DNA of 64,000 bases, taken from assembly GCA_964429695.1 (NCBI GenBank), contig CAYSCS010000003.1, forward strand, positions 6,704 through 70,703, given 5' to 3'. The stretch is from an uncultured Eubacteriales bacterium (lineage in GTDB: Bacteria > Acidobacteriota > Aminicenantia > Aminicenantales > Aminicenantaceae). The notes beneath the pieces were generated by a model that was not told the origin of the DNA, searched no databases, and saw only the letters and a program-made list of their open reading frames with translations. How positions within the stretch are numbered: position 1 is the stretch's first letter; each line of letters begins with the position of its first letter. The translations under genes and the position numbers were made by a program. This document shows, in pieces, positions 11,213 through 51,268 of the stretch.

Positions 11213-11261
11213 GATGAGGCTAAAAAACTAAATCTTTTGATGAAAAGAGGAACTCATCCCC

Positions 11262-12068: not shown

Positions 12069-12069
12069 A

Positions 12070-15000: not shown

Positions 15001-15450
15001 GAAGACTCAAGAATCCCTGAAATTTCAACACCTCAACATGCCCCCTCCCGCGAGTGTTACAGAATCCTCCTTGCTGAAGATAATATCATCAACCAAAAAG
15101 TTGCTTTCTACATGCTTGAAAAACTTGGGCATCAAGTCAAAGCCGCCCACAATGGCGAGGAAGCAATTTCTGCCTTGGAAAAAAACATCTTTGATTTAAT
15201 CTTGATGGACGTTCAGATGCCCAAAATGGATGGCTTTGAAGCCACAGCTATTATCAGGGAAAAGGAAGCAAAAACCGGTAAGCATATTCCTATCATTGCC
15301 ATGACAGCTCATGCCATGAAAGGGGATCGAGAAAAATGTTTGGAAGCTGGAATGGATGATTACATCTCCAAACCTCTCAACTCAGACGAGCTCTCCAGGA
15401 CTATAGAAAGAGTGATGAGGAAGTTCAAAGAAAACCAAAAAAATCGATAG
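12070..15450 (+). CDS. Hybrid sensor histidine kinase with five parts: a coiled coil with NEEL repeats, three PAS/PAC domains, HisKA, HATPase_c and two receiver domains.
   Basis: The N-terminal coiled coil reads [34 protein letters not shown]-like blocks follow. The H-box is [21 protein letters not shown], and the ATPase part shows DTGIGIP and [10 protein letters not shown]. The two receivers are [10 protein letters not shown]...[10 protein letters not shown] and [12 protein letters not shown]...[12 protein letters not shown]. Confidence 0.9.
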
Positions 15451-15455
15451 AAAAC

Positions 15456-16376
15456 ATGAAGCACTCAAACCTTAAAATTCTCATCGCAGACGATGACATC
15501 GTTTCTCGTAAAATGCTGGAAAAGGCTCTCAAAGATTGTGGATATAAATTAGTCATCACTCGGAATGGAGAGGCAGCCTGGGAGGCCCTTATTGAAGACA
15601 AAGACATTCAATTGATAATTCTTGATTGGATGATGCCCAAAATTGATGGAATTGAACTATGCCGCAAGATACGTAATTTGAACAAGGATAAAAATACGTA
15701 TACCTACATCATCCTCCTCACCTCTAAGGACACGCCAGAAGATGTGCTCAAGGGCCTTTCTTCGGGAGCAGATGATTATATAACCAAGCCCTTCCATCAT
15801 CTTGAGTTAAAGGCTCGCTTGAATACGGGTATCAGAATCATCGAACTTCACAATAGGCTTACCCAAGACAGTCTCACCAAACTTCCCAACAGAAATAAAA
15901 TAATTCAACACCTGGATGAAGAGTTAAATAGAAGCTTGAGGGAAAAAAAGCCAGTGGGGGTGATAATGGCTGATATAGATAATTTTAAGATGATTAACGA
16001 TACCTATGGCCATCAGGTTGGAGATGAGGTGTTGATTGAAATTGCTTCTCGTCTTCAAAGAAATCTTCGGCGTTATGATAAAATTGGACGTTACGCAGGT
16101 GACGAATTGCTGATTGTCATCCCCAACTGCAAACATTCAAACCTCAAAGGTATCGCTGAAAGGTTAAGGAAAAATGTCAGCGACAATAAAATAACCACAG
16201 GTGCTGGTCTGCTTGAAGTTACGCTAAGTTTAGGGTGTGCTTCATCTGAGCATTTCCCTTTCATTTCCACCGGGGAACTCATCAAAGCCAGCGACGAAGC
16301 CCTGTACATGGCAAAAAGAAACGGTCGCAACTGTGTAATCGTGAGTAAAATAAGTACTTCTAAAATAGAGGATTAA
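15456..16376 (+). CDS. Response regulator with a GGDEF domain whose A-site is degenerate (AGDEL) and whose RxxD I-site is intact.
   Basis: The receiver domain reads KILIADDD...ILDWMMPKIDG. The GGDEF domain contains RRYDKIGRYAGDELLIVIP. Confidence 0.85.
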   Translation: MKHSNLKILIADDDIVSRKMLEKALKDCGYKLVITRNGEAAWEALIEDKDIQLIILDWMMPKIDGIELCRKIRNLNKDKNTYTYIILLTSKDTPEDVLKGLSSGADDYITKPFHHLELKARLNTGIRIIELHNRLTQDSLTKLPNRNKIIQHLDEELNRSLREKKPVGVIMADIDNFKMINDTYGHQVGDEVLIEIASRLQRNLRRYDKIGRYAGDELLIVIPNCKHSNLKGIAERLRKNVSDNKITTGAGLLEVTLSLGCASSEHFPFISTGELIKASDEALYMAKRNGRNCVIVSKISTSKIED

Positions 16377-16377
16377 A

Positions 16378-16725
16378 ATGAATGAAAATGATTATTCGAA
16401 AAAAGATGCCCCCATTGATTTTTCCTCAGCCCTGGAAAGAACAGGAGGGGATAGGTCCTTTCTCATGGAACTCATCAATCTTTATCTAGATGATTTCAAG
16501 CAGAAATTTGAGGAGTTACAGAAAGCAATTACTGAGGGAAATTTCTCCTCAATCCAGGAACTCGGGCACAGCCTCAAAGGAGCTTCTGCAAACTTAAGCA
16601 TGCCATATTTGCAAATTGCTTCTCATACTATGGAGCTCGCGGGAAAAGAGAAAAACATAGAAAAAGCCCAAAAGACACTCCAGCTTTTGGAACAAGAATT
16701 TAAAAGATTGAATGACTTCCTCTGA
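16378..16725 (+). CDS. Hpt (histidine phosphotransfer) domain protein.
   Basis: It is 115 aa with an HSLKGASANLSM motif, which I read as the HxxKG phospho-His signature. Confidence 0.7.
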   Translation: MNENDYSKKDAPIDFSSALERTGGDRSFLMELINLYLDDFKQKFEELQKAITEGNFSSIQELGHSLKGASANLSMPYLQIASHTMELAGKEKNIEKAQKTLQLLEQEFKRLNDFL

Positions 16726-17098
16726 TTCATTCTGGTGCGCTAAAGAAATGATGAAAAGGGAAAAAACAAGAAAAGAGAAAGTATCAAAGAATCGAGTTTC
16801 CTCTATAAATGAATTGATTCCGCTTTACCTCGAAAATGTCCACCTTTATCTTGTCACCCTAAGGCGTGCTCTTGATGAAGAAAATTTTGACGAAATCGAA
16901 AATATAGGTCACAAGATGAAAGGCTCGGGAAAAAGCTTCGGTTTTGAGAGAATCTCAGAATTGGGAAAAGAAATTGAGGAACGTTCCAGAGAAAAAAATA
17001 AAAATACACTCAGAAAGCTGGCCAAAAGTATGGAGGATTATCTTTCTGATGTGTATCCGCCGCTTAAATCTTCAGATGAGAACAGAAAAACGATTTGA
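16712..17098 (+). CDS. Second Hpt domain protein.
   Basis: The Hpt motif GHKMKGSGKSFGF is present. It sits in tandem with the first Hpt gene, with a 14-nt overlap. Confidence 0.65.
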   Translation: MTSSDSFWCAKEMMKREKTRKEKVSKNRVSSINELIPLYLENVHLYLVTLRRALDEENFDEIENIGHKMKGSGKSFGFERISELGKEIEERSREKNKNTLRKLAKSMEDYLSDVYPPLKSSDENRKTI

Positions 17099-22463: not shown

Positions 22464-22492
22464 TTGACACTCTTTTGAAATTGTGCTTTACT
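22464..22492 (+). promoter_or_regulatory. Candidate sigma70-like promoter upstream of hdrC.
   Basis: The sequence is TTGACA-N17-TTTACT, sitting about 80 nt upstream of the first gene of the 13-gene cluster. The -10 hexamer is weak. Confidence 0.3.
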
Positions 22493-22569
22493 TAAAGGTA
22501 AATTTTTCTGATTTACAAATCCTATAGCGATAATAGGTTTTTAAAACCAGCGCAAAAAGAGATTATTAG

Positions 22570-22977
22570 ATGAGAATTAACTTATCCCAAAAAAAAATAA
22601 GAAATCCATTAGTCCAAAAAGTCCAGGAACTCAGCGGCCAAAACCTTCTTGCCTGCTACCAGTGTGGAAAATGCTCTGCTGGGTGCCCAGCTATCTCTGA
22701 GATGGATATTCTCCCTAACCAGATTATTCGTTATGCTCAACTAGGCCTGAGCGATGAGCTTTTAAGGTCGAAAGCGATCTGGATCTGCGCTTCATGTTTC
22801 ACCTGCAACGCTCGTTGTCCAAAGGGGATTAATATAGCTGAAGTAATAGAAGCCTTGAGACAGATACTCCTCCGCAAGAGGGAGGACCACGTTAAAATTG
22901 AAAAACTCTCTGAGAAGGAAAAGAAAGAAGTCCCTCCCATTGCCCTCATCAGCAGTTTTAGAAAGTTTACTTCCTAA
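22570..22977 (+). CDS. hdrC: Heterodisulfide reductase subunit C-like protein with two [4Fe-4S] clusters.
   Basis: The two cluster motifs are CYQCGKCSAGCP and CASCFTCNARCP. Size and context match HdrC. Confidence 0.8.
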   Translation: MRINLSQKKIRNPLVQKVQELSGQNLLACYQCGKCSAGCPAISEMDILPNQIIRYAQLGLSDELLRSKAIWICASCFTCNARCPKGINIAEVIEALRQILLRKREDHVKIEKLSEKEKKEVPPIALISSFRKFTS

Positions 22978-23037: not shown

Positions 23038-23916
23038 ATGAAAATAAGTTATTATCCTGGCTGTACCCTGAAGAACCATGCAAAAAATTTTGAAGATTCA
23101 ACCCTTTGTGCCCTAAAAGCTCTAGGCATAGAAGTCGAAGAACTGCGGCGTTGGAACTGTTGTGGAACAGTTTTTTCCTTAGCCACGGATGATTTAATTC
23201 ATCATCTGGCTCCCATCCGAAACCTCATCAGAGTCAAGGAATCTAATTCTAACCGAGTAATGACCCTCTGCGCCATGTGCTACAATACCTTGAAAAGAGC
23301 GAATGAAAGACTCAAGCAAGACCCAGTAAGCCTCGAAAAAATTAACAAATTCATGTACCTAGAGAAAATCGATTATGAAGGAGATGTGAAAATCTTTCAT
23401 CTTCTAGAATTTTTGAGAGATGAGATAAGCTTCGAGAATATTAAGAAGAAAGTAATTAAGCCCCTGAATAATCTGAAAGTAGCGAATTATTATGGATGTC
23501 TCCTGATAAGACCCAAAGAAATAGGCTTCGATGATGTTGAAAATCCTGTGATAATGGAGAATTTAATGCTTTCCCTGGGCGCTACACCCATAGATTTTCC
23601 TTACAAAACAGAGTGCTGTGCAGCCTATCAGACTGTTGACAAACCAGAAATTGTGGCAGAGAGAACCTTCCAGATCATCACTGCGGCACGGCTCCACGGA
23701 GCTGAAGTCCTAGCAGTGAGCTGTCCTCTCTGCGCCTTCAACCTCGACCAAAGGCAGAAAAAAACCCTGGAGAAATATCCTGATTTTAAAATTACCCCAG
23801 TCCTTTATTTCACGCAGCTCATGGCCATAGCACTCGGTTGCAAGGAAAATGAACTGAGATTAGACCTCCATTATATAGACCCTAAGCCTATTCTTGAAGA
23901 AAAAGGTCTGATATGA
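23038..23916 (+). CDS. hdrB: Heterodisulfide reductase subunit B-like protein with two CCG domains.
   Basis: WNCCGT..., YYGCLL... and ECCAAY are the hallmark CCG-domain Cys patterns. Confidence 0.85.
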   Translation: MKISYYPGCTLKNHAKNFEDSTLCALKALGIEVEELRRWNCCGTVFSLATDDLIHHLAPIRNLIRVKESNSNRVMTLCAMCYNTLKRANERLKQDPVSLEKINKFMYLEKIDYEGDVKIFHLLEFLRDEISFENIKKKVIKPLNNLKVANYYGCLLIRPKEIGFDDVENPVIMENLMLSLGATPIDFPYKTECCAAYQTVDKPEIVAERTFQIITAARLHGAEVLAVSCPLCAFNLDQRQKKTLEKYPDFKITPVLYFTQLMAIALGCKENELRLDLHYIDPKPILEEKGLI

Positions 23917-23923
23917 GGCTCAA

Positions 23924-24199
23924 ATGATTTACTTTGGAGATTTAAAAGAGAAAAAGGGAAAAATCCATATCAACAGGGATAGATGCAAAGGATGCGGATT
24001 TTGTGTGGAATATTGCCCTAGAGATGTGCTCGAAATGTCAGACGAATTCAACATCAAAGGATATCATCCTCCCTTTGTCAAAAACGAGGAAAAATGCCTC
24101 TATTGTCAACTTTGCGAGGCAATATGTCCTGAATTTGCCATATTTGTGACTCTCAAGAAAGAGGAGGAAGAAGGTGAAAAAGGTGAAAGCCGACCCTAA
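23924..24199 (+). CDS. korD: 2-oxoacid:ferredoxin oxidoreductase delta subunit (2x[4Fe-4S] ferredoxin).
   Basis: It is 91 aa with the motifs CKGCGFCVEYCP and CLYCQLCEAICP, immediately upstream of the alpha, beta and gamma subunits. Confidence 0.7.
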   Translation: MIYFGDLKEKKGKIHINRDRCKGCGFCVEYCPRDVLEMSDEFNIKGYHPPFVKNEEKCLYCQLCEAICPEFAIFVTLKKEEEEGEKGESRP

Positions 24200-25340
24200 G
24201 GGAGTCTTAACAGGCTCACATTACTTAGACGGAGATTATGCCATCGCCGAAGGAGCCCTTGCTGCAGGTTGTCGCTTTTTTGCTGGTTATCCTATTACTC
24301 CCTCCACTGAGACGGCTGAACGGTTTGCCGAAAGGATTCCGATGGTGGGAGGGATTTTCATTCAGATGGAAGACGAAATTGCCTCCATAGCAGCCCTGAT
24401 TGGAGCAGTATGGGGCGGGATGAAAGCTATGACGGTGACCTCAGGACCAGGATTCTCGTTAATGATGGAGAACATAGGGCTCGCCTGTATGCTGGAAACC
24501 CCTCTTGTCATCGCCAATGTCCAGAGAGGAGGACCCTCCACCGGGCTTCCTACTCTTACCGGGCAGCAGGACATGATGCAAGTAAGATGGGGTTCCCACG
24601 GTGACTATGAAATAATTGCACTTTCTCCTGATTCCCCTCAGGAATGCTTCGACCTTACCATAAAAGCTTTCAATCTTTCTGAAATGTACAGGGTGCCAAC
24701 CTTCATCATGACCGATGAATGTGTGGGGCACATGCATGAGAAGGTAGTCATCCCTCCTGCTGAAGAAATAGAGCTTGTAGAAAGGAAATGGTACACCGGC
24801 CCCAAGGATAAATATCTTCCTTTTAAACCTGATAAAGATATGATTCCTTTCATGGTTAAAGTAGGGGAAGGTTATCGCTTTCACATCACAGGACTCACCC
24901 ATGATGAGAGAGGCTATCCAGTGATTAATGCCGAATGCCAGAATAAATGTGTCCCTCACTTGGTGGATAAAATAAAGCTCAATGCAGAAAAAATAATCGA
25001 GTTTCAAGAAGATGAAACCGATGACGCAGAGGTTGTTGTGGTCTCCTATGGGATAACTTCTCGGGTTTCTATAAGAGCCGTTCAACAAGCCCGAAAAGCA
25101 GGCATAAAGGTAGGAACACTGAGGTTGATTACTGTCTGGCCTTTCCCTGAAAGAAGAATAAGAGAGCTAGCAGGAAAAATAAAGGCCTTTGTGGTTCCAG
25201 AAATCAACTATGGTCAAATGGTCTATGAAGTAGAAAGATGCGCCGCAGGTAAAGCTTCTGTGTACCATGTACCCCACTGCGGTGGTTGGGTTCACGACCC
25301 CAAAGATATTTTCAAGGTTATCAAGGAGGCAGCAAAATGA
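24174..25340 (+). CDS. korA: 2-oxoacid:ferredoxin oxidoreductase alpha subunit.
   Basis: This 388-aa protein has the POR/KOR alpha fold signature (GYPITPSTE, GFSLMMENIGLACMLETPLV). It overlaps the delta and beta genes. Confidence 0.85.
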   Translation: MKKVKADPKGVLTGSHYLDGDYAIAEGALAAGCRFFAGYPITPSTETAERFAERIPMVGGIFIQMEDEIASIAALIGAVWGGMKAMTVTSGPGFSLMMENIGLACMLETPLVIANVQRGGPSTGLPTLTGQQDMMQVRWGSHGDYEIIALSPDSPQECFDLTIKAFNLSEMYRVPTFIMTDECVGHMHEKVVIPPAEEIELVERKWYTGPKDKYLPFKPDKDMIPFMVKVGEGYRFHITGLTHDERGYPVINAECQNKCVPHLVDKIKLNAEKIIEFQEDETDDAEVVVVSYGITSRVSIRAVQQARKAGIKVGTLRLITVWPFPERRIRELAGKIKAFVVPEINYGQMVYEVERCAAGKASVYHVPHCGGWVHDPKDIFKVIKEAAK

Positions 25341-26209
25341 AAGAAGAAGATCGCCTCGAAGAAAGAAATCCAATTGAAGATTTCCTCAGGATGGACAGAA
25401 TTCCCCATATTTGGTGTCCGGGCTGCGGGATTGGAACTGTTGTCAGCTCCTTTGCTGAAGCGCTTCGCAAGAGCAAGCTTAATCTGGATAAAGTAGCCAT
25501 TCTTTCGGGAATCGGGTGCACAGGCCGGGTGGCTGGATACGTCAAACTCGACTCCATCCACACCACCCATGGCCGAGCCATTCCTGTAGCCACAGGAGTG
25601 AAGCTGGCGAATCCTGAGCTCAAGGTTGTTGTCTTTAGTGGAGACGGAGACATAGTAGGAATTGGAGGAAACCATTTCATTCACGCAGCAAGGAGAAACA
25701 TGGACCTCATCGTCATCTGTGTCAATAATTTCAATTACGCGATGACAGGAGGACAGGTAGCAGCTACGACTCCCATCTTAGCCAATCTTTCCACAGCACC
25801 TTACGGGAATTTCGAATATCCCTTCAATCTCCCCTATCTCGCCGAGGCTTCAGGTGCTACCTATGTGGCTCGCTGGACAGCACTCCACTTAAGACGAGTG
25901 ACCAAATCCATTCAAGAAGCCTTGGAACACAGAGGCTTTTCCTTTATAGAGGTCATCACTCCCTGTGTGACCCTTTATGCAAGAAGAAACCGGCTTGGGG
26001 ATGGGCTGAATCTTCTCAAATACTACTATGAGAATTCAGAAATACAACACGGAGCAGATACGCGTACTCTGGATATTTCCTACCAGGGGAAAATCATCGT
26101 GGGTAAATTCGTCCACAAGCAAAAGCCCACTTTCCTTGATTGTATGAATGAGCATCTCTCCAAAGTGTTGGGAAATAAATATAAACCCTATGGAGTAAGC
26201 CATGACTGA
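25337..26209 (+). CDS. korB: 2-oxoacid:ferredoxin oxidoreductase beta subunit (TPP-binding).
   Basis: WCPGCGIG is near the N-terminus, and the TPP motif GCTGRV...VVFSGDGD is present. I prefer the Met at 25337 (RBS AAGGAGG, ATGA overlap with the korA stop) to the longer 25286 track ORF. Confidence 0.85.
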   Translation: MKEEDRLEERNPIEDFLRMDRIPHIWCPGCGIGTVVSSFAEALRKSKLNLDKVAILSGIGCTGRVAGYVKLDSIHTTHGRAIPVATGVKLANPELKVVVFSGDGDIVGIGGNHFIHAARRNMDLIVICVNNFNYAMTGGQVAATTPILANLSTAPYGNFEYPFNLPYLAEASGATYVARWTALHLRRVTKSIQEALEHRGFSFIEVITPCVTLYARRNRLGDGLNLLKYYYENSEIQHGADTRTLDISYQGKIIVGKFVHKQKPTFLDCMNEHLSKVLGNKYKPYGVSHD

Positions 26210-26792
26210 GATAAGGTTTTCAGGTTTTGGAGGACAGGGAATAATTCGCTGTGGCTTGATAGCCGGAAAGGCACTTTCTCTCTTCGATAATAAGCATGCC
26301 ACAATGACTCAAAGCTTCGGTCCTGAGGCAAGGGGAAGTGCATGTAGCTCTCAGCTTGTCGTCTCTGAGGACCGTGTCCTTTATCCTTACATCACCAGAC
26401 CTGAAATCCTCGTAGCCATGTCTCAGGAAGCCTATGATAAATATGAGCCAGAGCTTCGAGAAGGAGGTATTCTAATCATAGACAGGGACCTAGTTAAACC
26501 CAAGGCCTCCAAGAGAAATATCAAGATTTATTCCATACCTTCCACTCGTTTTGCTGAAGAACTTGGTAACCGCATCATAGCTAACTTAGTCATGCTTGGG
26601 TTTTTCACTGCAATCACAGGGGTTGTCTCTCCAGAGGCCATGAAAAAGGCCCTTCCTGGACTTGTTCCCCAAAGATTTCTCGACCTTAACATCAAAGCGT
26701 TTGAAAAAGGTTACGATTATGGAATGGAAGTCCTCGCCGCAGAGAAGGACACGGAAAAGAAATCTCAGAAGAAAGAAAAGCCTCAGACCTGA
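26202..26792 (+). CDS. korC: 2-oxoacid:ferredoxin oxidoreductase gamma subunit.
   Basis: This 196-aa protein has a POR/KOR gamma-like N-terminus, IRFSGFGGQGIIRCGLIAGKA. Confidence 0.8.
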   Translation: MTEIRFSGFGGQGIIRCGLIAGKALSLFDNKHATMTQSFGPEARGSACSSQLVVSEDRVLYPYITRPEILVAMSQEAYDKYEPELREGGILIIDRDLVKPKASKRNIKIYSIPSTRFAEELGNRIIANLVMLGFFTAITGVVSPEAMKKALPGLVPQRFLDLNIKAFEKGYDYGMEVLAAEKDTEKKSQKKEKPQT

Positions 26793-26806: not shown

Positions 26807-28753
26807 ATGAGGAGAACTGGAGTATTTGTTTGTCATTGTGGAATAAACATCGCAGGAACAGTAGATGTTAAAAAGGTAGCCAAAGAGCTCTCCACCCATC
26901 CCAATGTGGTTCATTCTGAAGACTACGTTTATATGTGTTCTGACCCCGGCCAAAACTTAATCAGCAATGCCATTAAACAAAAAAAACTCGATAGCGTAGT
27001 GGTCGCCTGCTGTTCCCCTACCCTTCACGAATCAACCTTCAGAAACTGCGTTAAATCAGCCGGAGTAAATCCTTTCCATTGTGAAATAGCAAATATTCGT
27101 GAACAATGCAGCTGGGTCCATAAAGAGATGGAAAAGGCGACAAGTAAGGCCATAAAAATAACTAGAAGCACCGTGGAGAAAGTGACGCGCAACGAGCCCC
27201 TTGAACCAATAAGTGTCCCAGTGACCAAAAGGGCACTGGTAATTGGAGGAGGAATCGCAGGTATTCAGGCCTCGCTCGACCTTGCTAACAGCGGTTTCGA
27301 GGTTGTTCTTGTCGAAAGGTCACCCTCCATTGGAGGGCACATGATCCAGCTCTCAGAAACATTTCCTACCCTTGATTGTTCTCAATGCATCCTGACACCA
27401 AAGATGGTGGAAGTCGCCAAACATCCTAAGATAAAACTAATGACCTACAGTGAGGTTCAGGAAGTCTCGGGATATGTAGGAAACTTCAGGGTCAAAATAC
27501 TCAAGAAACCCACCTACGTGGATCCCGATAAATGTACCCTCTGCGATGAATGTACTAAAGTCTGCCCTGTAGTCACAGAAAATGAATTCGACTTAGGCCT
27601 CACTGGCCGTCGCGCCATATATATCCCATTTCCTCAGGCCATCCCTGCCTCTTATACCTTGGACATAAACTCCTGCCCCGGTCTTTTGCCCATTGCTTGT
27701 GGAAAGTGTGCCGATGTCTGTGAGCCAAAAGCCATAGATTACGACATGAAGCCAAAAATCATAGAAATGGATTTTGGGGCCATAATTGTCGCTACCGGTT
27801 ACGACCTCTATGGAAAGGAAAACATGGCAGAATACGGTTATGGAAAGTACCCTGATGTCATAGATGGCCTTCAATTCGAGAGACTCTGTTCTGCTTCAGG
27901 CCCAACGAAAGGAAAAATTCTCCGCCCTTCTGATCATAAAGAACCCAAAGAAGTAGTCTTCATTCAGTGTGTAGGCTCTCGCGACCCTGAAATGCATTGC
28001 TCCTATTGCTCAAAGATTTGCTGCATGTACACGGCGAAACATGCCATGCTCTATAAGCATCATGTTCCAGATGGCCAGGCTTATATCTTCTACATAGACA
28101 TAAGGTCTGGGGGGAAGGGGTATGAAGAGTTTGTTCAGAGGGCAGTGGAAGAAGATAGTGTCCTGTATCTTCGCGGTAAAGTCTCCAAAATATTTGAAGA
28201 AAGAGGAAAGATAAGGGTCTGGGGCGTAGACACCTTATCCGGAAAAGACATCGAAATAGACGCCGACATGGTGGTTCTGGCCATGGCCATGAGACCCTCA
28301 AAAGGAGCAGAAGAATTAGCCAAGAAACTAAAGATTGCGCTGGATAAGGATGGTTTTCTTGCCGAGGCCCATCCCAAACTAAGACCTGTGGAAAGTGTTA
28401 CCTCTGGGGTTTTCCTCGCTGGCGCAGCCCAAGCTCCTAAAGATATTCCAGAGGCCGTTGCTCAAGCAAGCGGCGCAGCCTCAAAGGCAATAGCCATATT
28501 ATCCCAGGAAAGGCTATTCCATTCTCCCACTGTGGCCAAAGTCAACACAAATCTCTGCACAGGTTGTGGAATGTGCGTCTCTGTATGTCCCTATGAAGCC
28601 CTCTCCCTTAAAGATGGAAAGGTGGAAGTAAAAGAAGTTCTTTGCGAAGGATGTGGAACATGTTCAGCAACATGCCTGAGGGCAGCGATTCAGGTAAAAA
28701 ACCTGACGCCAAGACAAGTCTACGATATGATTAACGCCTCCCTCGGAGGATGA
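26807..28753 (+). CDS. hdrA: Heterodisulfide reductase subunit A-like flavo-iron-sulfur protein.
   Basis: It has the typical HdrA start MRRTGVFVCHCGINIAGTVD, the FAD motif VIGGGIAGIQASLDLA, several CxxCxxCxxxCP clusters and the inserted ferredoxin domain. Confidence 0.9.
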   Translation: MRRTGVFVCHCGINIAGTVDVKKVAKELSTHPNVVHSEDYVYMCSDPGQNLISNAIKQKKLDSVVVACCSPTLHESTFRNCVKSAGVNPFHCEIANIREQCSWVHKEMEKATSKAIKITRSTVEKVTRNEPLEPISVPVTKRALVIGGGIAGIQASLDLANSGFEVVLVERSPSIGGHMIQLSETFPTLDCSQCILTPKMVEVAKHPKIKLMTYSEVQEVSGYVGNFRVKILKKPTYVDPDKCTLCDECTKVCPVVTENEFDLGLTGRRAIYIPFPQAIPASYTLDINSCPGLLPIACGKCADVCEPKAIDYDMKPKIIEMDFGAIIVATGYDLYGKENMAEYGYGKYPDVIDGLQFERLCSASGPTKGKILRPSDHKEPKEVVFIQCVGSRDPEMHCSYCSKICCMYTAKHAMLYKHHVPDGQAYIFYIDIRSGGKGYEEFVQRAVEEDSVLYLRGKVSKIFEERGKIRVWGVDTLSGKDIEIDADMVVLAMAMRPSKGAEELAKKLKIALDKDGFLAEAHPKLRPVESVTSGVFLAGAAQAPKDIPEAVAQASGAASKAIAILSQERLFHSPTVAKVNTNLCTGCGMCVSVCPYEALSLKDGKVEVKEVLCEGCGTCSATCLRAAIQVKNLTPRQVYDMINASLGG

Positions 28754-29178
28754 AGATGAGAGAAGATTTTGAGCCAAAAATTATGGCATTCCTCTGCAAA
28801 TGGTGTTCCTCGGCAGGAAGTGACCTCGCTGGAGTCTCTCGGATGGAATATCCGCCCAACGCAGTCCCAATTACTGTGATGTGCTCGGGAAGTGTCTCAC
28901 CCCTATACATTTTCAATGCCTTCAAAAGAGGGGCAGATGGAGTGCTTGTCTCAGGTTGTCATCCTGGTGATTGCCATTATATAAAAGGAAACTATTATGC
29001 ACGCCGAAGAATAGCCCTCGTGAAGAAACTCCTTGAATTCATAGGCCTTGAACCCCAGAGGTTCCAAATGTCTTGGGTTTCCGCAGCTGAAGGCCTCAAG
29101 TATACCCAGATAATCAAGGACTTCGTAAAAGAAATAAAACCCCTTGGACCCCAAACTAAGCTGAGGAGAGAAAAGTAA
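28750..29178 (+). CDS. mvhD: MvhD/FlxD-like protein (methyl-viologen-reducing hydrogenase delta-subunit family).
   Basis: MAFLCKWCSSAG...MCSGSVSPLYIFNAFKRGADGVLVSGCHPGDCHY is the canonical MvhD motif set. Confidence 0.85.
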   Translation: MKMREDFEPKIMAFLCKWCSSAGSDLAGVSRMEYPPNAVPITVMCSGSVSPLYIFNAFKRGADGVLVSGCHPGDCHYIKGNYYARRRIALVKKLLEFIGLEPQRFQMSWVSAAEGLKYTQIIKDFVKEIKPLGPQTKLRREK

Positions 29179-30209
29179 TGGTTAATCCTGAGGAACTTAA
29201 AAATGAAGCCAAGAAAGCACTGAAAGAAGGGAAAGTAAAATACATCATCGGATATAGAAAAAAACCAGAAGAATCAATGGCTACCCCAGCCTTCATCAGG
29301 AGAGCCGAAGATTCAGAAATTCTTATTTGGGATCCAACGTGCGTTCACAATCTAGTTCGATTCCTGAGTGATGAGAAGAGGAGAAGAAAGAGAGAAAAAA
29401 ACCCTGAACAAAGGCCTGTGGGGATAGTGATAAAAGGCTGCGACAGCCGGGCGATAAACGTGCTTCTCCAGGAGAAATTCATAGCCCGAGAAGATGTTTA
29501 CCTCATCGGCATTTCCTGTGAGGACAATGGAGTTATAGATGAGAAAAAATTACGAAAAAAACTAAACGGGAGAAAAGCCAAAAGAGTCGATTTCAAAGAA
29601 GGACAAGAATTAATCATCGAAACTGAGGAAGGCAAAATTTTCCTTCCTGCCAAGGAAATCCTCGCTGAAAGATGTCTTGAATGCAAAGTTAATTTCCCCA
29701 TAGTATACGATGTTCTTTTAGGGGATAAAACAAAGCGAAAGCCAGAGAAAGAATTCGCTTCAGTTGAAAAATTCGATTCACTCTCAACCTCCCAAAAATG
29801 GGATTTCTGGAAGAATCAACTCGAGAAGTGTATCCGCTGCTATGCTTGCCGGTCTGTTTGTCCCATGTGCTACTGCGATGAATGTGTAGTGGACACCATA
29901 AGCTTTGCCGTGAGCGCGGATACAACGGCAGAGGAAAAGGCAAATAAAATTAAATGGATAGAAAAATCTCCAGTCCTCTCGGAAAACATTGTCTATCATA
30001 TGGTCAGAGCAATCCATCTTGCGGGTCGATGCGTTGACTGCGGAGAGTGCGAAAGAGCATGCCCTGTAAACATCCCCTTGCGTCTTTTGAATAATAAAAT
30101 GGAAAAAGAAGCCAAAGAGCTCTTCGGGTATGAAGCAGGTCTTGATTCTCAACAACCATCCCTCGTTGCCTGTTTCAGAGATGAGGACCCGCAAGATTTT
30201 ATCAGGTAA
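29178..30209 (+). CDS. Fe-S oxidoreductase subunit, AsrA/HydB (sulfhydrogenase-beta)/FlxC-like.
   Basis: CIRCYACRSVCPMCYCDEC and CVDCGECERACP are two [4Fe-4S] motifs whose spacing matches the AsrA/HydB family. It is a paralog of the next gene. Confidence 0.55.
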   Translation: MVNPEELKNEAKKALKEGKVKYIIGYRKKPEESMATPAFIRRAEDSEILIWDPTCVHNLVRFLSDEKRRRKREKNPEQRPVGIVIKGCDSRAINVLLQEKFIAREDVYLIGISCEDNGVIDEKKLRKKLNGRKAKRVDFKEGQELIIETEEGKIFLPAKEILAERCLECKVNFPIVYDVLLGDKTKRKPEKEFASVEKFDSLSTSQKWDFWKNQLEKCIRCYACRSVCPMCYCDECVVDTISFAVSADTTAEEKANKIKWIEKSPVLSENIVYHMVRAIHLAGRCVDCGECERACPVNIPLRLLNNKMEKEAKELFGYEAGLDSQQPSLVACFRDEDPQDFIR

Positions 30210-30214
30210 GAAAG

Positions 30215-31255
30215 ATGGATAAAGTACTCCACAAAAAGGCGTTACCTAAATGGCTTAAAGAACTTGAATCATACGAAATCTATGCTCCTCAAGAAAATGA
30301 TGACCTCTGGAGCTTTGAGTTAGTCAAGTCCTTTGAATTCTTGGATTCAAATTATTCAAACTGCATCCAGTCCCCAAAAAAAATAATCTTCCCTCAAACA
30401 GAGACCCTGCTCAAGTTTGAGAGATTAGAAAATGGAAAGCTCGAGGTTGAAGAACAATTACCAGAAGACAGAAAAAAAGTCATCTTTGGAGTAAGACCTT
30501 GTGACGCAAAAGCACTCACTCTCATGGATAAGGTCTTCACAGGAGATTTCGAAGACCTATATTACACAAAGAGAAGAAACCAGACCACTCTAGTTGGGCT
30601 AGGTTGTAATACTCCCCCCTCTCCACAGTGTTTCTGTGTTTCTGTCGGTGGCTCACCCCATTCGAATGAAGGGCTTGATATTCTGATGACTGACCTTGAA
30701 GATAAATATTACCTTCAATCATTTACCGCTAAAGGCAATGAACTCTTGATCCTGGGAAAGAATATTTTCGAGGAACCGAACCCAGATGAAAAAAGCATGC
30801 TTAAGCGCATTCATCAGGAAGCAAAGAATAAATTCAAAACTAAGCTCCGTGAAATTGAAAAAATACCGGATAAATTAAAAGGAATGTTTGACTCTTCCTT
30901 CTGGGATGAGGAGGCCATGAGTTGCATCCGTTGCGGAATATGTACATATCTCTGTCCTACCTGCCACTGTTTTGATATAAATGATGAAGTTTACTCTACT
31001 TCTTCCCTGAGAGGAAAGCGCATCAGAACCTGGGATACATGCCAGTTCCCTGATTTCACTATGCACTCTTCTGGGCATAATCCACGGCCTGACAAGGCAT
31101 CCCGGCTAAGACAGAGGATTTTTCATAAGTTCCAGTATTTTGTGGAGAAGTTCAATGCCTACCAATGTACAGGGTGCGGAAGATGCATCTCCAAATGCCC
31201 GGTAGGTATAGACATAACCGAAATTCTGGAAAAGGTGAAAAATTATGGCTCATAA
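30215..31255 (+). CDS. Fe-S oxidoreductase subunit, AsrA/HydB/FlxB-like.
   Basis: CIRCGICTYLCPTCHCFD and CTGCGRCISKCPVG are present. The length of about 345 aa is typical of AsrA/HydB. It overlaps the next gene by 11 nt. Confidence 0.6.
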   Translation: MDKVLHKKALPKWLKELESYEIYAPQENDDLWSFELVKSFEFLDSNYSNCIQSPKKIIFPQTETLLKFERLENGKLEVEEQLPEDRKKVIFGVRPCDAKALTLMDKVFTGDFEDLYYTKRRNQTTLVGLGCNTPPSPQCFCVSVGGSPHSNEGLDILMTDLEDKYYLQSFTAKGNELLILGKNIFEEPNPDEKSMLKRIHQEAKNKFKTKLREIEKIPDKLKGMFDSSFWDEEAMSCIRCGICTYLCPTCHCFDINDEVYSTSSLRGKRIRTWDTCQFPDFTMHSSGHNPRPDKASRLRQRIFHKFQYFVEKFNAYQCTGCGRCISKCPVGIDITEILEKVKNYGS

Positions 31256-32069
31256 CCCATACATTCCGAGGCTGGCAAGAATAATTGAAATTAAAGAGGA
31301 AGTAGGCGGCACAAGACCAATCAAAACCTTCAGAACCAAGTTTCTCAACGAAGATGGCTTCTCCTTCCGATGTGGCCAATGCGCCATGCTTTCTGTCTTC
31401 GGCAAAGGAGAATCAATGATCTCCATTTCATCCAGCCCTCTTGAGAAGGAATTTATTCAGTTCAGTGTCCTGAAAATGGGAAGAGTGACCACGGCGCTTC
31501 ATGAGATGGAGGTAGGAGATATCATTGGAATAAGAGGGCCTTATGGGAATGGTTTTCCGATAGAAGAATGGAAGGGGAAAAATCTTATTTTCATCGGCGG
31601 TGGAATCGGACTGGCTCCCATCTGGTCAGTTTTACAAACGGCCCTGGCAAAGAAAGAAGAATATGGAGAGCTGATGCTCATCTACGGAGCCAGAACTTCC
31701 CGAGATTTAGTTTTTAAAAAAGAATTAGAGGAATTAAAAAGAGAGATCAAAGTCCACCTTTCAATCGACGTGGAGGAGCCTGGATGGAAGGAGTATGTTG
31801 GTTTTGTTCCCCTCAACGTGCTTGACAAAAAACCATCGCCAAATAACGCAATTACCGTCACTTGCGGTCCACCAATCATGATTAAATTTGTTATAAAAAA
31901 TCTTCAAGCTCTAGGTTTCCAGGACGATCAAATTTATACTACAGTAGAAAATAAGATGAAGTGTGGAATAGGAAAATGTGGACGATGTAATATAGGGGTT
32001 AATTATGTTTGTAAGGATGGCCCTGTCTATTCTTGGGCTGTGCTAAAAAAACTTCCTCAGGAATATTAG
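31245..32069 (+). CDS. FAD/NAD(P)-binding oxidoreductase with a C-terminal [2Fe-2S] cluster (HydG/AsrB/FlxA/PyrK-like).
   Basis: It has an FNR-like fold (RPIKTF...FRCGQCAMLSV; GGGIGLAPI NAD motif) and a C-terminal CGIGKCGRCNIG cluster. Confidence 0.75.
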   Translation: MAHNPYIPRLARIIEIKEEVGGTRPIKTFRTKFLNEDGFSFRCGQCAMLSVFGKGESMISISSSPLEKEFIQFSVLKMGRVTTALHEMEVGDIIGIRGPYGNGFPIEEWKGKNLIFIGGGIGLAPIWSVLQTALAKKEEYGELMLIYGARTSRDLVFKKELEELKREIKVHLSIDVEEPGWKEYVGFVPLNVLDKKPSPNNAITVTCGPPIMIKFVIKNLQALGFQDDQIYTTVENKMKCGIGKCGRCNIGVNYVCKDGPVYSWAVLKKLPQEY

Positions 32070-32085: not shown

Positions 32086-32820
32086 ATGGAAGAAAAGAAA
32101 CCTAAGCCAGCTCAAAAACAGAAATACACACCGCTAAAAAATGAAGAAAAAAGAGAATTTGTAACCGTGTTCATCATGGGTAAAGCCTATAAAGTCCCGG
32201 CCGATGCCACAATCATGGGAGCCATCGAATACGCGGGATATCAAATAAAAAGAGGGGCAGGGTGTCGCGAAGGTTTCTGCGGAGCCTGCGCAACTGTTTT
32301 CCGACTTCCCGGAGATTTCAAGATTTATACAGGACTCGCCTGTACCACTCTCGTCAAAGAAGGCATGTGGCTCTCTCAGCTTCCTGCCATCCCTGACAGA
32401 CGCGCCACCTATGACATAAATAAGCTCGTGCCCAGTGTGGTCACCTTCCAGATCCTCTACCCAGAAATTTTTCGCTGCGTCGCCTGTAATACTTGCACTA
32501 AAGCTTGCCCCCAGAACCTAGAAGTCATGGATTATATCCAAGCTGCAATGAGAGGTGATATCGAAAAAGTGATGGACCTTTCCTTTGACTGTCTCTGCTG
32601 CGGGCTATGCGCCATCCGCTGTCCAGCAGAGATAGTCCAATATAATGTGGGGATTCTCGCTAAAAGGCTTTATGGAAAGTATCTTTCAAAGAAAAGCCTT
32701 CAACTTGAAAAAAGAATAAAAGAAATTCAGAAAGGAATTTATGACAAAGAATATAAAAAATTGATGCTTATGAGCAAAGAAGAGCTTAAAAAATTATATT
32801 ATGAAAGAGACATTGAATGA
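32086..32820 (+). CDS. Succinate dehydrogenase / fumarate reductase iron-sulfur subunit-like protein.
   Basis: The N-terminal [2Fe-2S] motif is CREGFCGACATVF. Downstream are CVACNTCTKACP and CLCCGLCAIRCP, the SdhB/FrdB cluster arrangement. Confidence 0.75.
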   Translation: MEEKKPKPAQKQKYTPLKNEEKREFVTVFIMGKAYKVPADATIMGAIEYAGYQIKRGAGCREGFCGACATVFRLPGDFKIYTGLACTTLVKEGMWLSQLPAIPDRRATYDINKLVPSVVTFQILYPEIFRCVACNTCTKACPQNLEVMDYIQAAMRGDIEKVMDLSFDCLCCGLCAIRCPAEIVQYNVGILAKRLYGKYLSKKSLQLEKRIKEIQKGIYDKEYKKLMLMSKEELKKLYYERDIE

Positions 32821-32863: not shown

Positions 32864-34531
32864 ATGTACCCAGAATACATGAGGCCATCCCTAGAAAAAG
32901 TTGCCCAAACTCGCCCCAAGAGGTTTGAGCTCGAAAAATCAGGAAAACCAGTTTTTCCTCCCATGAAAGCCGAAGAAAGAGAAGAGGTTCTCAAGAAATT
33001 TCATCCCGATTATAAACCCGATGCCAGGCGAAAGATTCGCATCGGAGTAAATAATGGAGAAGAAATAACCACAGAAGTGGCAGATATGCTGGAATCACAC
33101 TCGAGAATAAAGCCTGAGCTATTTAACCTTACCAATCCTGATTTTGAAACGGATATTCTAATCATTGGAGGAGGCGGCGCAGGATGTGCAGCAGCCATAA
33201 TCGCCATGCAGAACAAGGCAAAATCAATCATCTCCACAAAACTGCGCCTAGGAGATGCGAATTCGATGATGTCACAGGGAGGGATGCAAGCCGCTGTTAC
33301 TGAACAGGACTCCCCTACCCGCCATTATCTGGATGCAATGGGAGGTGGCCATTTTGACAACAAACCTGAACTCGTAAGAGCCTTGACAGAGGATGGCCCT
33401 GAAGTTGTTAAATGGCTTGAAGAGCTGGGTGTAATCTGGGATAAATATGAAGATGGCTCTCTCCAGGTCCTCCATGGGGGAGGAACATCCAGAAAAAGAA
33501 TGCACTCCTGCCGCGATTATACGGGAGCAATAATCATGCGCACGCTGATGGATGAAGTAAGAAACCACCCTGATATGATTCGCGTCTTGGAATTCATGCC
33601 CACAGTTGAGCTTATCATGGACAAGAGAGGCAGATGCGCGGGAGGTGTTCTCTATAATCTGGAGACAGAGGAATATTTTACGGTCAAGGCCAAGGCAGTC
33701 ATCATCGCTACAGGAGGATACGGAAGGCTTCACATCCGCGGCTTTGACACCACCAACCACTACGGGGCAACTGGAGATGGGCTTGTCATTGCTTACCGCG
33801 CCGGGGCAAAGCTACTCTACATGGACTCAGTTCAATATCATCCTACGGGAGCAGTCTTCCCTGAACAGATTGCCGGTTTTTTAATCACCGAAAAAATCAG
33901 AGGAGCAGGGGGGCAACCAATAAATAAATTCGGTGAACTTTTTGTCTTCCCTCGGGAACCAAGGGATGTTGAGAGTGCGGCTATCATCAGGGAATGCGTA
34001 GAACGAAAAAACGGAATTGAAACCCCAAGCGGCCGCGTGGGTGTCTGGCTGGATTCCCCCCTAATTGAAATGATTCAAGGCGAGGGATACATAAATAAAC
34101 AATTCCCGGCTATGCATCGCCAATTCATTCGCTATGGGATTGATATAACTAAAGAGCCGATGCTCATCTATCCCTCCCTCCATTACCAGAATGGGGGAAT
34201 CGAGATTAATGAAAGATGCGAAACCAACATTCCCGGTCTCTACGTTGCTGGAGAAGCCTCAGGAGGAGTCCATGGCCGTAATCGACTGATGGGAAATTCG
34301 GTTCTTGACTACAATGTGTTTGGAAGAAGAGCGGGTAAATATGCAGCAGAATACATAAAATCAGTCAAGATAGGAACCTTGACCCTTGAGCATGTAAATG
34401 CGTATGAACAGGAATTGAAAAAAGCAGGGATTAAAACAGATAGAATCGCACCTGTCCTTCTTCCCTCTTATACGCCCGAGGATGTGAGAAGACGACAGCT
34501 CACGGCTCACTATGAAGGAACGCTGAGATAG
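32864..34531 (+). CDS. Fumarate reductase / succinate dehydrogenase / L-aspartate oxidase-family flavoprotein subunit.
   Basis: The FAD motif is ILIIGGGGAGCAAAI. There is no His at the covalent-FAD position (SQGGMQAAV). The conserved LHYQNGGIEI...GLYVAGEASGGVHGRNRLMGNSVLD block is present. An unusual roughly 100-aa N-terminal extension precedes the FAD motif. Confidence 0.8.
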   Translation: MYPEYMRPSLEKVAQTRPKRFELEKSGKPVFPPMKAEEREEVLKKFHPDYKPDARRKIRIGVNNGEEITTEVADMLESHSRIKPELFNLTNPDFETDILIIGGGGAGCAAAIIAMQNKAKSIISTKLRLGDANSMMSQGGMQAAVTEQDSPTRHYLDAMGGGHFDNKPELVRALTEDGPEVVKWLEELGVIWDKYEDGSLQVLHGGGTSRKRMHSCRDYTGAIIMRTLMDEVRNHPDMIRVLEFMPTVELIMDKRGRCAGGVLYNLETEEYFTVKAKAVIIATGGYGRLHIRGFDTTNHYGATGDGLVIAYRAGAKLLYMDSVQYHPTGAVFPEQIAGFLITEKIRGAGGQPINKFGELFVFPREPRDVESAAIIRECVERKNGIETPSGRVGVWLDSPLIEMIQGEGYINKQFPAMHRQFIRYGIDITKEPMLIYPSLHYQNGGIEINERCETNIPGLYVAGEASGGVHGRNRLMGNSVLDYNVFGRRAGKYAAEYIKSVKIGTLTLEHVNAYEQELKKAGIKTDRIAPVLLPSYTPEDVRRRQLTAHYEGTLR

Positions 34532-34706
34532 GAAGACGAGGTTTCCCCCTCCTCAAAAGGAGACATCCTGAAGAAAACAAAAGAACCTCTTCCTTTGACC
34601 GTGAGGGCCAGAGCCTCTCTCTCTTTTTGACTTTTTGGAAAAATTGTTATATCTAATAAAATAGTTTAGTTTACTATTCCCTCTTGTAAAGGGTGGGAGG
34701 CTTTAA

Positions 34707-35138
34707 ATGGAATACAACGGAATCGAAAGAAGGGCATGCATCAGGTTCAAAATACCCGGCTCAACAGTCAGCTATAAAAAAAGTCCTCTCTTAAGCGATA
34801 AGGAAGAGTACGGAGAAGAATTTTGCCCTATTCTGGATATCAGCCGAGGAGGAGTGAGGTTTTTATCTCAGAAGCCTCTTAAAATTAACACCCAACTCAC
34901 TCTCAAGATTTCAGTCCCAGGAGAAACAATACCTCTCAAACAACTGGGAATTGTGCGCTGGTCAACTTACAATCCAGGAAAAAGCTATAAATATCAAATT
35001 GGGGTCCAGTTCAATCCTTATGGTGAAAAAAAGGAAGAAAATTATCCTGGAAACCTAGTTAAAATCATTGCTTTTGAACAGAAGTTCGCCCTCCCGAATC
35101 AGTTAGAAACTGACGAATTTGAGACCGATAGCAGTTGA
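34707..35138 (+). CDS. PilZ domain protein, a putative c-di-GMP receptor.
   Basis: It contains RRACIRFKI (RxxxR) and DISRGGVRF (D/NxSxxG), both PilZ motifs. Confidence 0.7.
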   Translation: MEYNGIERRACIRFKIPGSTVSYKKSPLLSDKEEYGEEFCPILDISRGGVRFLSQKPLKINTQLTLKISVPGETIPLKQLGIVRWSTYNPGKSYKYQIGVQFNPYGEKKEENYPGNLVKIIAFEQKFALPNQLETDEFETDSS

Positions 35139-50936: not shown

Positions 50937-51030
<94 letters not shown>

Positions 51031-51178: not shown

Positions 51179-51268
51179 TGGCGGAGGGAGAGGGATTCGA
51201 ACCCCCGTCCCGATTGCTCGGGAAGCGATTTTCAAGACCGCCGCCTTAAACCACTCGGCCATCCCTCC
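51179..51268 (-). tRNA. tRNA-Ser (anticodon UGA), class II with an encoded CCA.
   Basis: The reverse complement reads GGAGGGA...GCGGT-CTTGAAA-ATCGC-TCCCGAGCAATCGGGA-CGGGGGTTCGAATCCCTC-TCCCTCC-G-CCA. Confidence 0.85.

Follow-up and report, generated by a model that had tools for sequence, protein, structure and literature searches.

An Aminicenantes operon that combines Hdr, Flx, 2-oxoglutarate synthase-type Kor and fumarate reductase-like genes, a probable counterpart of the proposed bifurcation module of tubeworm symbionts

We analysed a 64,000-nucleotide stretch of contig CAYSCS010000003.1 (assembly GCA_964429695.1) from an uncultured Aminicenantes bacterium, referred to here as the window. 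Its plus strand carries a 13-gene operon, hdrC-hdrB-korDABG-hdrA-mvhD(flxD)-flxC-flxB-flxA-frdB-tfrA, which combines a heterodisulfide reductase (Hdr), a four-subunit 2-oxoacid:ferredoxin oxidoreductase (Kor), an NAD(P)H-input module (Flx) and a fumarate reductase-like pair. In our view this operon is probably the Aminicenantes version of the Hdr-Flx/KorABCD/fumarate reductase module of tubeworm symbionts, in which bifurcation of electrons from NAD(P)H would feed both Kor and the fumarate reductase. [quoted passage not shown] Its co-expression as a single operon, together with genes of the reductive tricarboxylic acid (rTCA) cycle, is reported for the proteobacterial module, and it has already been proposed that Kor and fumarate reductase are fed by Hdr-Flx bifurcation from NADH (PMC6315080; Mitchell et al. 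2024, PMC11636981). The proposal recurs, as a still hypothetical one, in a 2026 survey of rTCA genomes, which finds the module in Ca. Endoriftia only among the autotrophs that it covered. The idea that Kor is a partner of Hdr, put forward in a preliminary description of the kor genes of the window, holds up but had thus been published before, in a fuller form; the six genes past hdrA (flxD, flxC, flxB, flxA, frdB and tfrA), which define the system, lay beyond the scope of that description.

The operon comprises the genes listed below, followed by a possible terminator. The flx names follow the usage for published Hdr-Flx clusters, and the likeness to Desulfovibrio is by protein type.

22570..22977, plus strand: hdrC-like, 135 aa, two [4Fe-4S] clusters (Pfam Fer4_8/Fer4_17; Fer4 dicluster with two CxxCxxCxxxCP motifs)
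23038..23916, plus strand: hdrB-like, 292 aa, two complete CCG motifs, the sites of non-cubane [4Fe-4S] clusters (Pfam CCG, twice)
23924..24199, plus strand: korD, delta subunit, 91 aa, two [4Fe-4S] clusters (Fer4 domains; eight Cys)
24174..25340, plus strand: korA, alpha subunit, 388 aa (POR_N and PFOR_II)
25337..26209, plus strand: korB, beta subunit, 290 aa, thiamine diphosphate and one [4Fe-4S] cluster predicted (TPP_enzyme_C)
26202..26792, plus strand: korG (korC), gamma subunit, 196 aa (Pfam POR)
26807..28753, plus strand: hdrA, 648 aa, predicted FAD-containing bifurcating subunit (N-terminal, inserted and C-terminal Fe-S domains)
28750..29178, plus strand: mvhD/flxD, 142 aa, adaptor between the input module and HdrA (Pfam FlpD, E=8e-52; match to the MvhD part that forms the C terminus of the HdrA2 model)
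29178..30209, plus strand: flxC-like Fe-S protein, 343 aa, 17 Cys (Fer4 motifs)
30215..31255, plus strand: flxB-like Fe-S protein, 346 aa, similar to sulfhydrogenase beta and AsrA (Fer4_22; PDB 9nez_B, 1e-49)
31245..32069, plus strand: flxA-like NAD(P)H-binding FAD/[2Fe-2S] protein, 274 aa (NAD_binding_1, FAD_binding_6, DHODB_Fe-S_bind)
32086..32820, plus strand: frdB-like Fe-S subunit, 244 aa, one [2Fe-2S] and two [4Fe-4S] clusters (Fer2 and Fer4; cysteine motifs; no CCG domain)
32864..34531, plus strand: tfrA-like fumarate reductase flavoprotein, 555 aa (FAD_binding_2, residues 97-480)
34603..34619, plus strand: possible terminator 72 nt past the tfrA stop, a hairpin with a T-run after it (weak evidence)

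The open reading frame list and the Pfam and NCBIfam scans give a tightly packed run hdrC-hdrB-korD-korA-korB-korG-hdrA, in agreement with the earlier observation that a kor set, delta subunit first, stands between hdrB and hdrA; the interval 23924-26792 extends exactly from the korD start through the korG stop. The overlapping kor frames noted earlier, including the ATGA between alpha and beta, are present in the sequence: korD and korA overlap by 26 nt, with the GTG start of korA at 24174 and GAGGAGG ahead of it; korA and korB have an ATGA in common at 25337-25340, with AAGGAGG ahead; and korB and korG overlap by 8 nt. The set is separated by 7 nt from hdrB and by 14 nt from hdrA, hdrA and mvhD overlap by 4 nt, and over all 13 genes the spacing ranges from -26 to +60 nt, without an internal terminator signal. 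A candidate promoter, TTGAAA-18-TAAATT at 22475-22504, is sensibly positioned but carries little weight, and the counts of promoter and terminator sites in the region do not exceed the shuffled expectation. The Pfam and NCBIfam scans detected no separate ferredoxin gene and no DsrC-like gene in the operon, and the Rfam scan of the whole window placed no RNA family in or before it. The preliminary description also took it as normal for hdrCB to be contiguous with hdrA, which is only partly right, since the arrangement is not universal and several methanogens transcribe hdrA apart from hdrCB.

The operon encodes the elements of a bifurcating HdrABC-MvhD core, with the FAD and Fe-S domains of HdrA, the HdrC clusters, the HdrB CCG motifs and MvhD. 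HdrA aligns with the methanogen structure 5odc_A (738 bits, residues 3-642), including the Fe-S cysteine motifs and the flavin-site region, and scores 844 bits with the HdrA2 model, below its cut-off of 1100. The whole length of HdrB can be aligned with its methanogen counterpart (7bkb_B, 1e-39), and both sets of CCG cysteines are kept (9, 41, 42, 78, 81 and 154, 193, 194, 229, 232); the HdrB scores with TIGR03288 (174.7 bits) and the SdhE model NF042965 (163 bits) are both below cut-off, as is the match of HdrC with TIGR03290 (E=2.5e-24). The NCBIfam Hdr equivalog scores are thus all below their cut-offs. Since the host is a bacterium, an acceptor other than CoM-S-S-CoB, the disulfide of coenzymes M and B, is expected.

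By domain content, the genes that follow hdrA form an FlxABCD NAD(P)H input, with an NAD(P)H/FAD/[2Fe-2S] protein (FlxA), FlxB, FlxC, and FlxD beside hdrA. FlxA is similar to the gamma subunit of sulfhydrogenase, with matches to the HydG, ShyC and AsrB models and to PDB 9nez_C (3e-59), and FlxB matches the ShyB, HydB and AsrA models, all below cut-off. In methanogen Fdh-Hdr complexes (7bkb_E, 8rvu_E and 9t1s_M) the C-terminal portion of FdhB is similar to residues 209-328 of FlxC, and to judge from this resemblance FlxC may have an adaptor role equivalent to that of FdhB.

All four subunits of KorDABG have the domains and motifs of a 2-oxoacid:ferredoxin oxidoreductase whose type is that of 2-oxoglutarate:ferredoxin oxidoreductase (OGOR). 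KorA scores 568.8 bits with NF006412 (2-oxoacid:acceptor oxidoreductase alpha subunit), above the curated cut-off of 411, and KorB has a GDG-X25-NN thiamine diphosphate motif and the cluster cysteines Cys27, Cys30, Cys61 and Cys210. The top NCBIfam match of KorD is OGOR_delta (74 bits, cut-off 125), and KorG scores 207 bits with NF006323 (cut-off 235). Models of the OGOR type score higher than Por and Ior models for each of the four subunits, three of which remain below cut-offs, and a Vor model comes near the OGOR-type score for KorA alone (300.5 bits). The PDB relatives of Kor include 2-oxoglutarate synthase 8ys5 and OGOR 6n2n; KorA itself matches 1yd7_A (7e-120) and 8ys5_A (3e-85), and its nearest relatives without Hdr linkage are the Kor of Methanobacteriales and Thermococcus. 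From these similarities and from the gene context we infer that 2-oxoglutarate is probably the substrate of Kor.

The FrdB-like protein covers just positions 19-85 of the 488-position TfrB model (NF004898), and the same model is matched by HdrC at positions 123-241 and by HdrB at 262-473, so that FrdB, HdrC and HdrB together tile it. This tiling makes a direct electron path from Hdr to the fumarate reductase more likely than a soluble thiol shuttle, and suggests that the operon encodes something like a thiol:fumarate reductase in separate pieces, with the Fe-S/CCG part shared with HdrA. A genuine thiol:fumarate reductase (TfrAB) was considered and rejected, as the FrdB-like protein has no CCG domains of its own and CCG domains are found only in the separate HdrB.

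The top model for the flavoprotein is TfrA (NF004900, 354 bits, below the cut-off of 718). Aligned to 7d6v_A, it keeps the catalytic HPT, RGxGG, HY and NRL motifs and has Asn at the position of the His that binds FAD covalently, in which it resembles soluble reductases and L-aspartate oxidase, the latter with Ser at this position. In the fumarate reductase/succinate dehydrogenase family covalent FAD is required for succinate oxidation, as established for E. coli Frd. Because Asn replaces the His, the sequence points to TfrA being a soluble reductase with non-covalent FAD rather than a dehydrogenase. Ahead of the FAD-binding domain TfrA has an N-terminal extension of about 95 residues (32864-33150) without a Pfam match, which is kept across phyla in all full-length Hdr-linked flavoproteins found among the loci of the survey described below (L009 13-350, L034, L042, L069 and L018). 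The extension could be a docking element.

In the mechanism considered here, NAD(P)H would be oxidised at FlxA and its electrons would pass through the clusters of FlxB, FlxC and MvhD and reach the HdrA FAD, where each electron pair would be split by flavin-based electron bifurcation. The high-potential electron would move through HdrC/HdrB and FrdB to TfrA, where fumarate would be reduced to succinate, and the low-potential electron would leave through the ferredoxin-like domains of HdrA towards Kor, either by way of KorD directly or on free ferredoxin. Kor would act as a 2-oxoglutarate synthase, carboxylating succinyl-CoA reductively to 2-oxoglutarate, and the net reaction would be 2 NADH + fumarate + succinyl-CoA + CO2 -> 2 NAD+ + succinate + 2-oxoglutarate + CoA. 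One fumarate would be reduced per succinyl-CoA carboxylated, which is the stoichiometry of the reductive TCA branch and fits a bifurcating enzyme; the highly favourable fumarate reduction would pay, one for one, for the unfavourable synthesis of 2-oxoglutarate.

Because the operon has an flxABCD input and a fumarate reductase with non-covalent FAD in addition to kor, Kor is more likely to take up low-potential electrons than to reduce ferredoxin, and the term 'ferredoxin-reducing' in the preliminary description probably has the direction wrong. The opposite direction would be a confurcation, in which Kor oxidises 2-oxoglutarate and its low-potential electrons are joined at the HdrA flavin with high-potential electrons derived from succinate to reduce NAD(P)+, as might suit an anaerobe that runs an oxidative TCA cycle, for example in amino-acid fermentation, without a quinone-linked succinate dehydrogenase. 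Bifurcating enzymes of the Hdr type are reversible in principle, the Aminicenantes are regarded as heterotrophs that ferment peptides and sugars, and the window operon has no ATP-citrate lyase beside it, unlike the proteobacterial loci L008 and L009 (see below); this is also the direction that was assumed before. With potentials of -320 mV for NADH, +33 mV for fumarate/succinate and about -500 mV for succinyl-CoA + CO2/2-oxoglutarate, however, the reductive direction is exergonic, and the oxidation of 2-oxoglutarate and succinate with 2 NAD+ would be uphill by about 30 kJ/mol (our calculation from textbook standard potentials). A non-covalent flavin in TfrA also disfavours succinate oxidation, and in the proteobacterial relatives the module adjoins aclB and is co-expressed with rTCA genes. 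We therefore consider confurcation unlikely and, on the energetics and the TfrA flavin, favour the reductive direction.

In order to place the window operon among its relatives, KorA was searched against representatives of 50%-identity clusters, 26 of which were aligned with the window KorA, and the alignment served as query for a scan of one genome per GTDB species. The scan gave at least 598 confirmed matches, from which the best 80 loci were kept, and the 13 window proteins were mapped onto each of these by tblastn; taxon titles of MAGs are taken as given in the records. Among these best 80 loci, 68 were informative, and 31 of the 68 have hdrA no more than 1.5 kb from kor. Linkage concentrates among the closer relatives, with 29 of the 50 loci in which KorA is at least 55% identical against 2 of the 18 below 55% (Fisher p = 7e-4). 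About 20 lineages of Bacteria and Archaea have the kor-hdrA adjacency, with the genes in several orders; among these lineages are Aminicenantes, Chloroflexota, Desulfobacterota, Planctomycetota, Cloacimonadota, Thermoplasmatota, Bathyarchaeia and Heimdallarchaeota.

The exact hdrCB-kor-hdrA order of the window is found in four further Aminicenantes-type MAGs (L002-L005) and in MAGs of Rhodocyclaceae and Gallionella (L008, L009). In the latter two the gene for the beta subunit of ATP-citrate lyase (aclB) comes right after flxA, which identifies them as the published rTCA cluster type. The order kor-hdrA-mvhD-hdrC-hdrB-frdB-tfrA occurs in Thermoplasmata, Vulcanimicrobiota and Fraserbacteria; loci of Heimdallarchaeota and Thermoplasmatota have a similar order, with a gap of about 3 kb past mvhD, and are cut off ahead of tfrA. 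One deltaproteobacterium has hdrCBA-kor-frdB-tfrA. Desulfomonile, other Desulfobacterota and one Spirochaetota MAG have kor-hdrA(-mvhD fused)-hdrCB without frd, and Calditrichaceae, Chloroflexota, Elusimicrobiota and Thermoplasmata have kor-hdrA-hdrA'-mvhD.

Some of these loci differ in the make-up of the proteins themselves. The hdrA after korG is fused to mvhD in Desulfomonile and in a Thermodesulfobacteriota MAG (806 and 828 aa; L020 7375-9795 and L023 12663-15149), and is doubled in a Thermoplasmata MAG (1044 aa; L017 3715-6849). These three clusters consist of kor, hdrA/mvhD and hdrCB (HdrD-like in L017), with no frd or flx gene mapped in the locus. In the Aminicenantes-type locus L005 (8374-17500) the operon stands in the same chromosomal context as in the window and has the form hdrCB-korDABG-hdrA-flxD-frdB-tfrA. 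As flxC, flxB and flxA are missing from it, some relatives either can do without the NAD(P)H input module or encode it at another site.

A neighbour-joining tree of KorA from the same sample, computed from simple distances, unites all 31 linked loci in one clade (bootstrap 87/100); outside it stand the Kor of Methanobacteriales, Clostridia-type MAGs, Fibrobacteraceae and Thermococcus, which are never linked in this sample. The check suggested by the preliminary description, whether Hdr-linked Kor paralogs form a distinct clade, thus had a positive outcome, and a grouping with housekeeping Kor was not seen. Within the clade, the KorA of Aminicenantes and of Rhodocyclaceae/Gallionella form a group (bootstrap 96/100). 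Inside the clade, hdr is missing from the neighbourhood of kor in about one third of the informative loci; members without an adjoining hdr include L006, L007, L050, L013-L015, L029, L030 and L046. The distances of KorA and HdrA over 26 sequences, those of the window and of 25 linked loci, are correlated (Pearson 0.50, Mantel p = 0.001), a mirror-tree result that is weakly informative because shared phylogeny alone could give it and because the HdrA sequences split into two subtypes, one about 57-87% and the other about 47-53% identical to the window HdrA.

The conservation of kor-hdrA adjacency across phyla in spite of reordering, the single clade of the linked Kor and the packed, overlapping genes together argue that Kor is a functional partner of Hdr and not a passenger. 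As a passenger, kor would be a housekeeping operon without functional relation to Hdr, brought in between hdrB and hdrA by a rearrangement or a horizontal transfer. It may be said for this that the G+C content of the operon (0.444) is slightly above that of its flanks (0.413-0.415), and that Rubin-Blum et al. (PMC6315080) inferred a horizontal transfer of the module into Gammaproteobacteria. The shift in G+C, however, spans the whole operon and not kor alone, five Aminicenantes-type genomes have the same insertion point as Rhodocyclaceae and Gallionella, and the linked Kor stand apart from those of Methanobacteriales, Clostridia-type MAGs and Thermococcus. On the evidence of synteny we reject a passenger origin, which we regard as highly improbable.

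The earlier claim went beyond partnership, to a stoichiometric association of Kor with Hdr, and this part does not follow, as synteny cannot tell docking from co-regulation with free ferredoxin. It is conceivable, and we offer it tentatively, that Kor-Hdr represents a general class of supercomplexes in Bacteria and Archaea, in which HdrA/MvhD would dock a four-subunit 2-oxoglutarate synthase through KorD and supply it with bifurcated low-potential electrons without free ferredoxin. By analogy, this class would be the TCA-cycle counterpart of the methanogen Hdr-Fmd complexes, with an interchangeable input module (Flx/NADH or others) and an interchangeable high-potential sink (fumarate reductase or HdrBC alone). 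If this were true, a presumed fermenter would gain an NADH-driven, ferredoxin-independent reductive TCA branch, and perhaps a hidden CO2 fixation. A structural precedent exists in PDB 7bkb, which holds HdrABC together with Fmd subunits and shows that Hdr can dock to a CO2-fixing enzyme.

Alternatively, the operon could encode co-regulated but separate enzymes, with Flx-Hdr reducing free ferredoxin and a soluble or protein disulfide, Kor drawing on the ferredoxin and the fumarate reductase on the resulting thiol, and no Kor-Hdr complex. Such a division of labour has a parallel in FlxABCD-HdrABC with the DsrC disulfide, which has been proposed for Desulfovibrio. Conserved synteny proves functional linkage only, and the members of the KorA clade without adjoining hdr indicate that such a Kor can act alone. 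A feature of KorD that would set linked members apart from unlinked ones was sought and none was found, a 'KGYHPP' insert and an acidic tail being common to the whole clade. In contrast, a thiol shuttle would be short of a second active site, since HdrB is the sole CCG protein in the operon and FrdB has no CCG domain, and the tiling of the TfrB model by FrdB, HdrC and HdrB favours direct wiring on the fumarate side. The operon moreover has neither a ferredoxin nor a DsrC-like gene of its own, and direct docking is known from the Hdr-Fmd structures. We regard fully separate enzymes as doubtful.

Several points weigh against the operon being an NAD(P)H-bifurcating Hdr-Flx/Kor/fumarate reductase module. 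The complex is hypothetical in every organism, and a 2026 review still calls it a suggestion. The specificity of Kor for 2-oxoglutarate is predicted from family similarity and context, and most subunits score below the NCBIfam curated cut-offs. Several KorA members of the same clade have no neighbouring hdr, and L005 and the archaeal versions lack flxABC, so that NADH is not a universal donor. Finally, the Aminicenantes are described as fermentative heterotrophs, and neither ATP-citrate lyase nor any other TCA gene that would indicate a full reductive cycle was found within the 64-kb window.

The host group is indicated by the nearest relatives of KorA (84-89% identity), which are named Candidatus Aminicenantes or Aminicenantales, and by those of the arginyl-tRNA synthetase of the window (42741-44678), also named Aminicenantes, at 68-73% identity. 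By this comparison conservation in the lineage is much stronger for operon proteins than for housekeeping proteins. The operon is flanked by unrelated genes, a spermidine-synthase-like gene upstream and PilZ, glyQS and gcvPHT downstream. The upstream genes DUF6599-DUF362-radical SAM-SpeE-like are common to the window and L002, L003 and L005, and in L005 the downstream PilZ-glyS-glyQ is common as well. Identity of the operon proteins is 72-87% in the two closest genomes and 55-87% over all five, against 48-75% for the flanking proteins. Since the context is conserved and the operon proteins are more alike than the flanking ones, the operon is old, vertically inherited and under strong constraint in these Aminicenantes genomes, and not a recent insertion.

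The window otherwise holds housekeeping genes, and its Pfam and NCBIfam scans found no aclBA, idh, rubrerythrin, pntAB or rnf genes near the operon. As the host group is described as fermentative heterotrophs and the window contains no ATP-citrate lyase or TCA gene, the module appears not to be confined to rTCA autotrophs. In Aminicenantes it may serve as a reductive branch to 2-oxoglutarate and glutamate, or in fumarate reduction as an electron sink, and the operon could be a sign of unrecognised CO2 fixation. The literature that we searched on Aminicenantes metabolism makes no mention of this cluster, and our search for a general Kor-Hdr linkage returned only the gammaproteobacterial cluster of Rubin-Blum et al. 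The kor-hdrA linkage that defines a KorA clade of many bacterial and archaeal phyla is possibly under-reported. The published idea has so far been based on a few gammaproteobacterial genomes, and the case for Kor-Hdr is strengthened by the conservation and vertical inheritance in Aminicenantes, by the multi-phylum KorA clade and by a linkage that persists despite reordering. Biochemical tests of the module, which is perhaps not tied to autotrophy, could now draw on a wider range of organisms and genes.

Directly past the operon lies the gene of the PilZ protein (34707-35138). Elsewhere in the window, a signalling cluster at 10736-17098 encodes a response regulator, a CheR methyltransferase, a receiver-GGDEF cyclase, two Hpt proteins and a 1126-aa hybrid PAS histidine kinase with two receiver domains. 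The prfB open reading frame for release factor 2 (1734-2627) starts only at position 47 of the PCRF profile, and upstream of it, at 1583-1592, stands AGGGGTTTTCTTTGAAG, the classical programmed +1 frameshift site of this factor (CTT TGA after a Shine-Dalgarno-like AGGGG). The RNA genes of the window are the following.

56720-56987, minus strand: large bacterial signal recognition particle RNA (Rfam scan)
50937-51030 and 51179-51268, minus strand: two tRNA-Ser genes (GCT and TGA anticodons), directly downstream of serS (51292-52569, minus strand)

With regard to known systems, Hydrogenobacter thermophilus is said to have, in work attributed to Miura et al. in 2008, a soluble five-subunit NADH-dependent fumarate reductase of the rTCA cycle, with FrdAB, Hdr-like and NAD(P)H-binding subunits; it reportedly has no HdrA, MvhD or Kor, and bifurcation is said not to have been demonstrated for it. 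By domain content, the window encodes the same seven protein types as FlxABCD-HdrABC of Desulfovibrio vulgaris (Ramos et al. 2015). Compared with that system, the genes stand in the opposite order with respect to transcription (hdrC first, flxA last), korDABG stands inside the cluster, frdB-tfrA is added and no alcohol dehydrogenase adjoins, and the proposed high-potential acceptor is fumarate instead of DsrC.

In the methanogen Fdh-Hdr-Fmd complex (Methanospirillum hungatei, 7bkb), HdrABC-MvhD passes electrons of low potential straight on to a CO2-fixing enzyme that depends on ferredoxin, and Mvh-Hdr-Fmd supercomplexes are likewise reported (PMC13580544). The methanogen hand-over uses a polyferredoxin-type subunit, and the window HdrA and HdrB align over their full length with methanogen chains. 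The proposed 2-oxoglutarate synthase would take the place of formylmethanofuran dehydrogenase, NAD(P)H that of H2 or formate, and fumarate that of CoM-S-S-CoB; the methanogen assemblies are solved as structures, whereas that of the window is predicted from its genes. As for the thiol:fumarate reductase TfrAB of Methanothermobacter (Heim et al. 1998), its TfrA is the top model for the window flavoprotein and its TfrB model is covered by FrdB, HdrC and HdrB. Methanothermobacter TfrB is one fused protein with its own CCG domains, whereas the window has three genes whose products would be shared with HdrA; the window flavoprotein stays below the model cut-off and has about 95 additional N-terminal residues, and its bacterial host presumably has neither CoM nor CoB.

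The closest counterpart remains the module of the tubeworm symbionts and Thioflavicoccus, in which the core order hdrC-hdrB-korD-korA-korB-korC-hdrA-flxD-flxC-flxB-flxA is identical to that of the window and the frdB/frdA pair is part of the operon too. The pair stands upstream of hdrC there, whereas frdB-tfrA follows flxA in the window, where the operon is followed by PilZ, glyQS and gcv instead of aclBA and is not embedded among rTCA genes. The host belongs to the Aminicenantes within the Acidobacteriota, not to the Gammaproteobacteria, and is not a known autotroph. The proteobacterial loci L008 and L009 form the sister group of the window KorA, and the operon proteins of L009 are 47-76% identical to those of the window. 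What is new here is the module in Aminicenantes, without ATP-citrate lyase in the window and at a chromosomal position that is conserved among these genomes.

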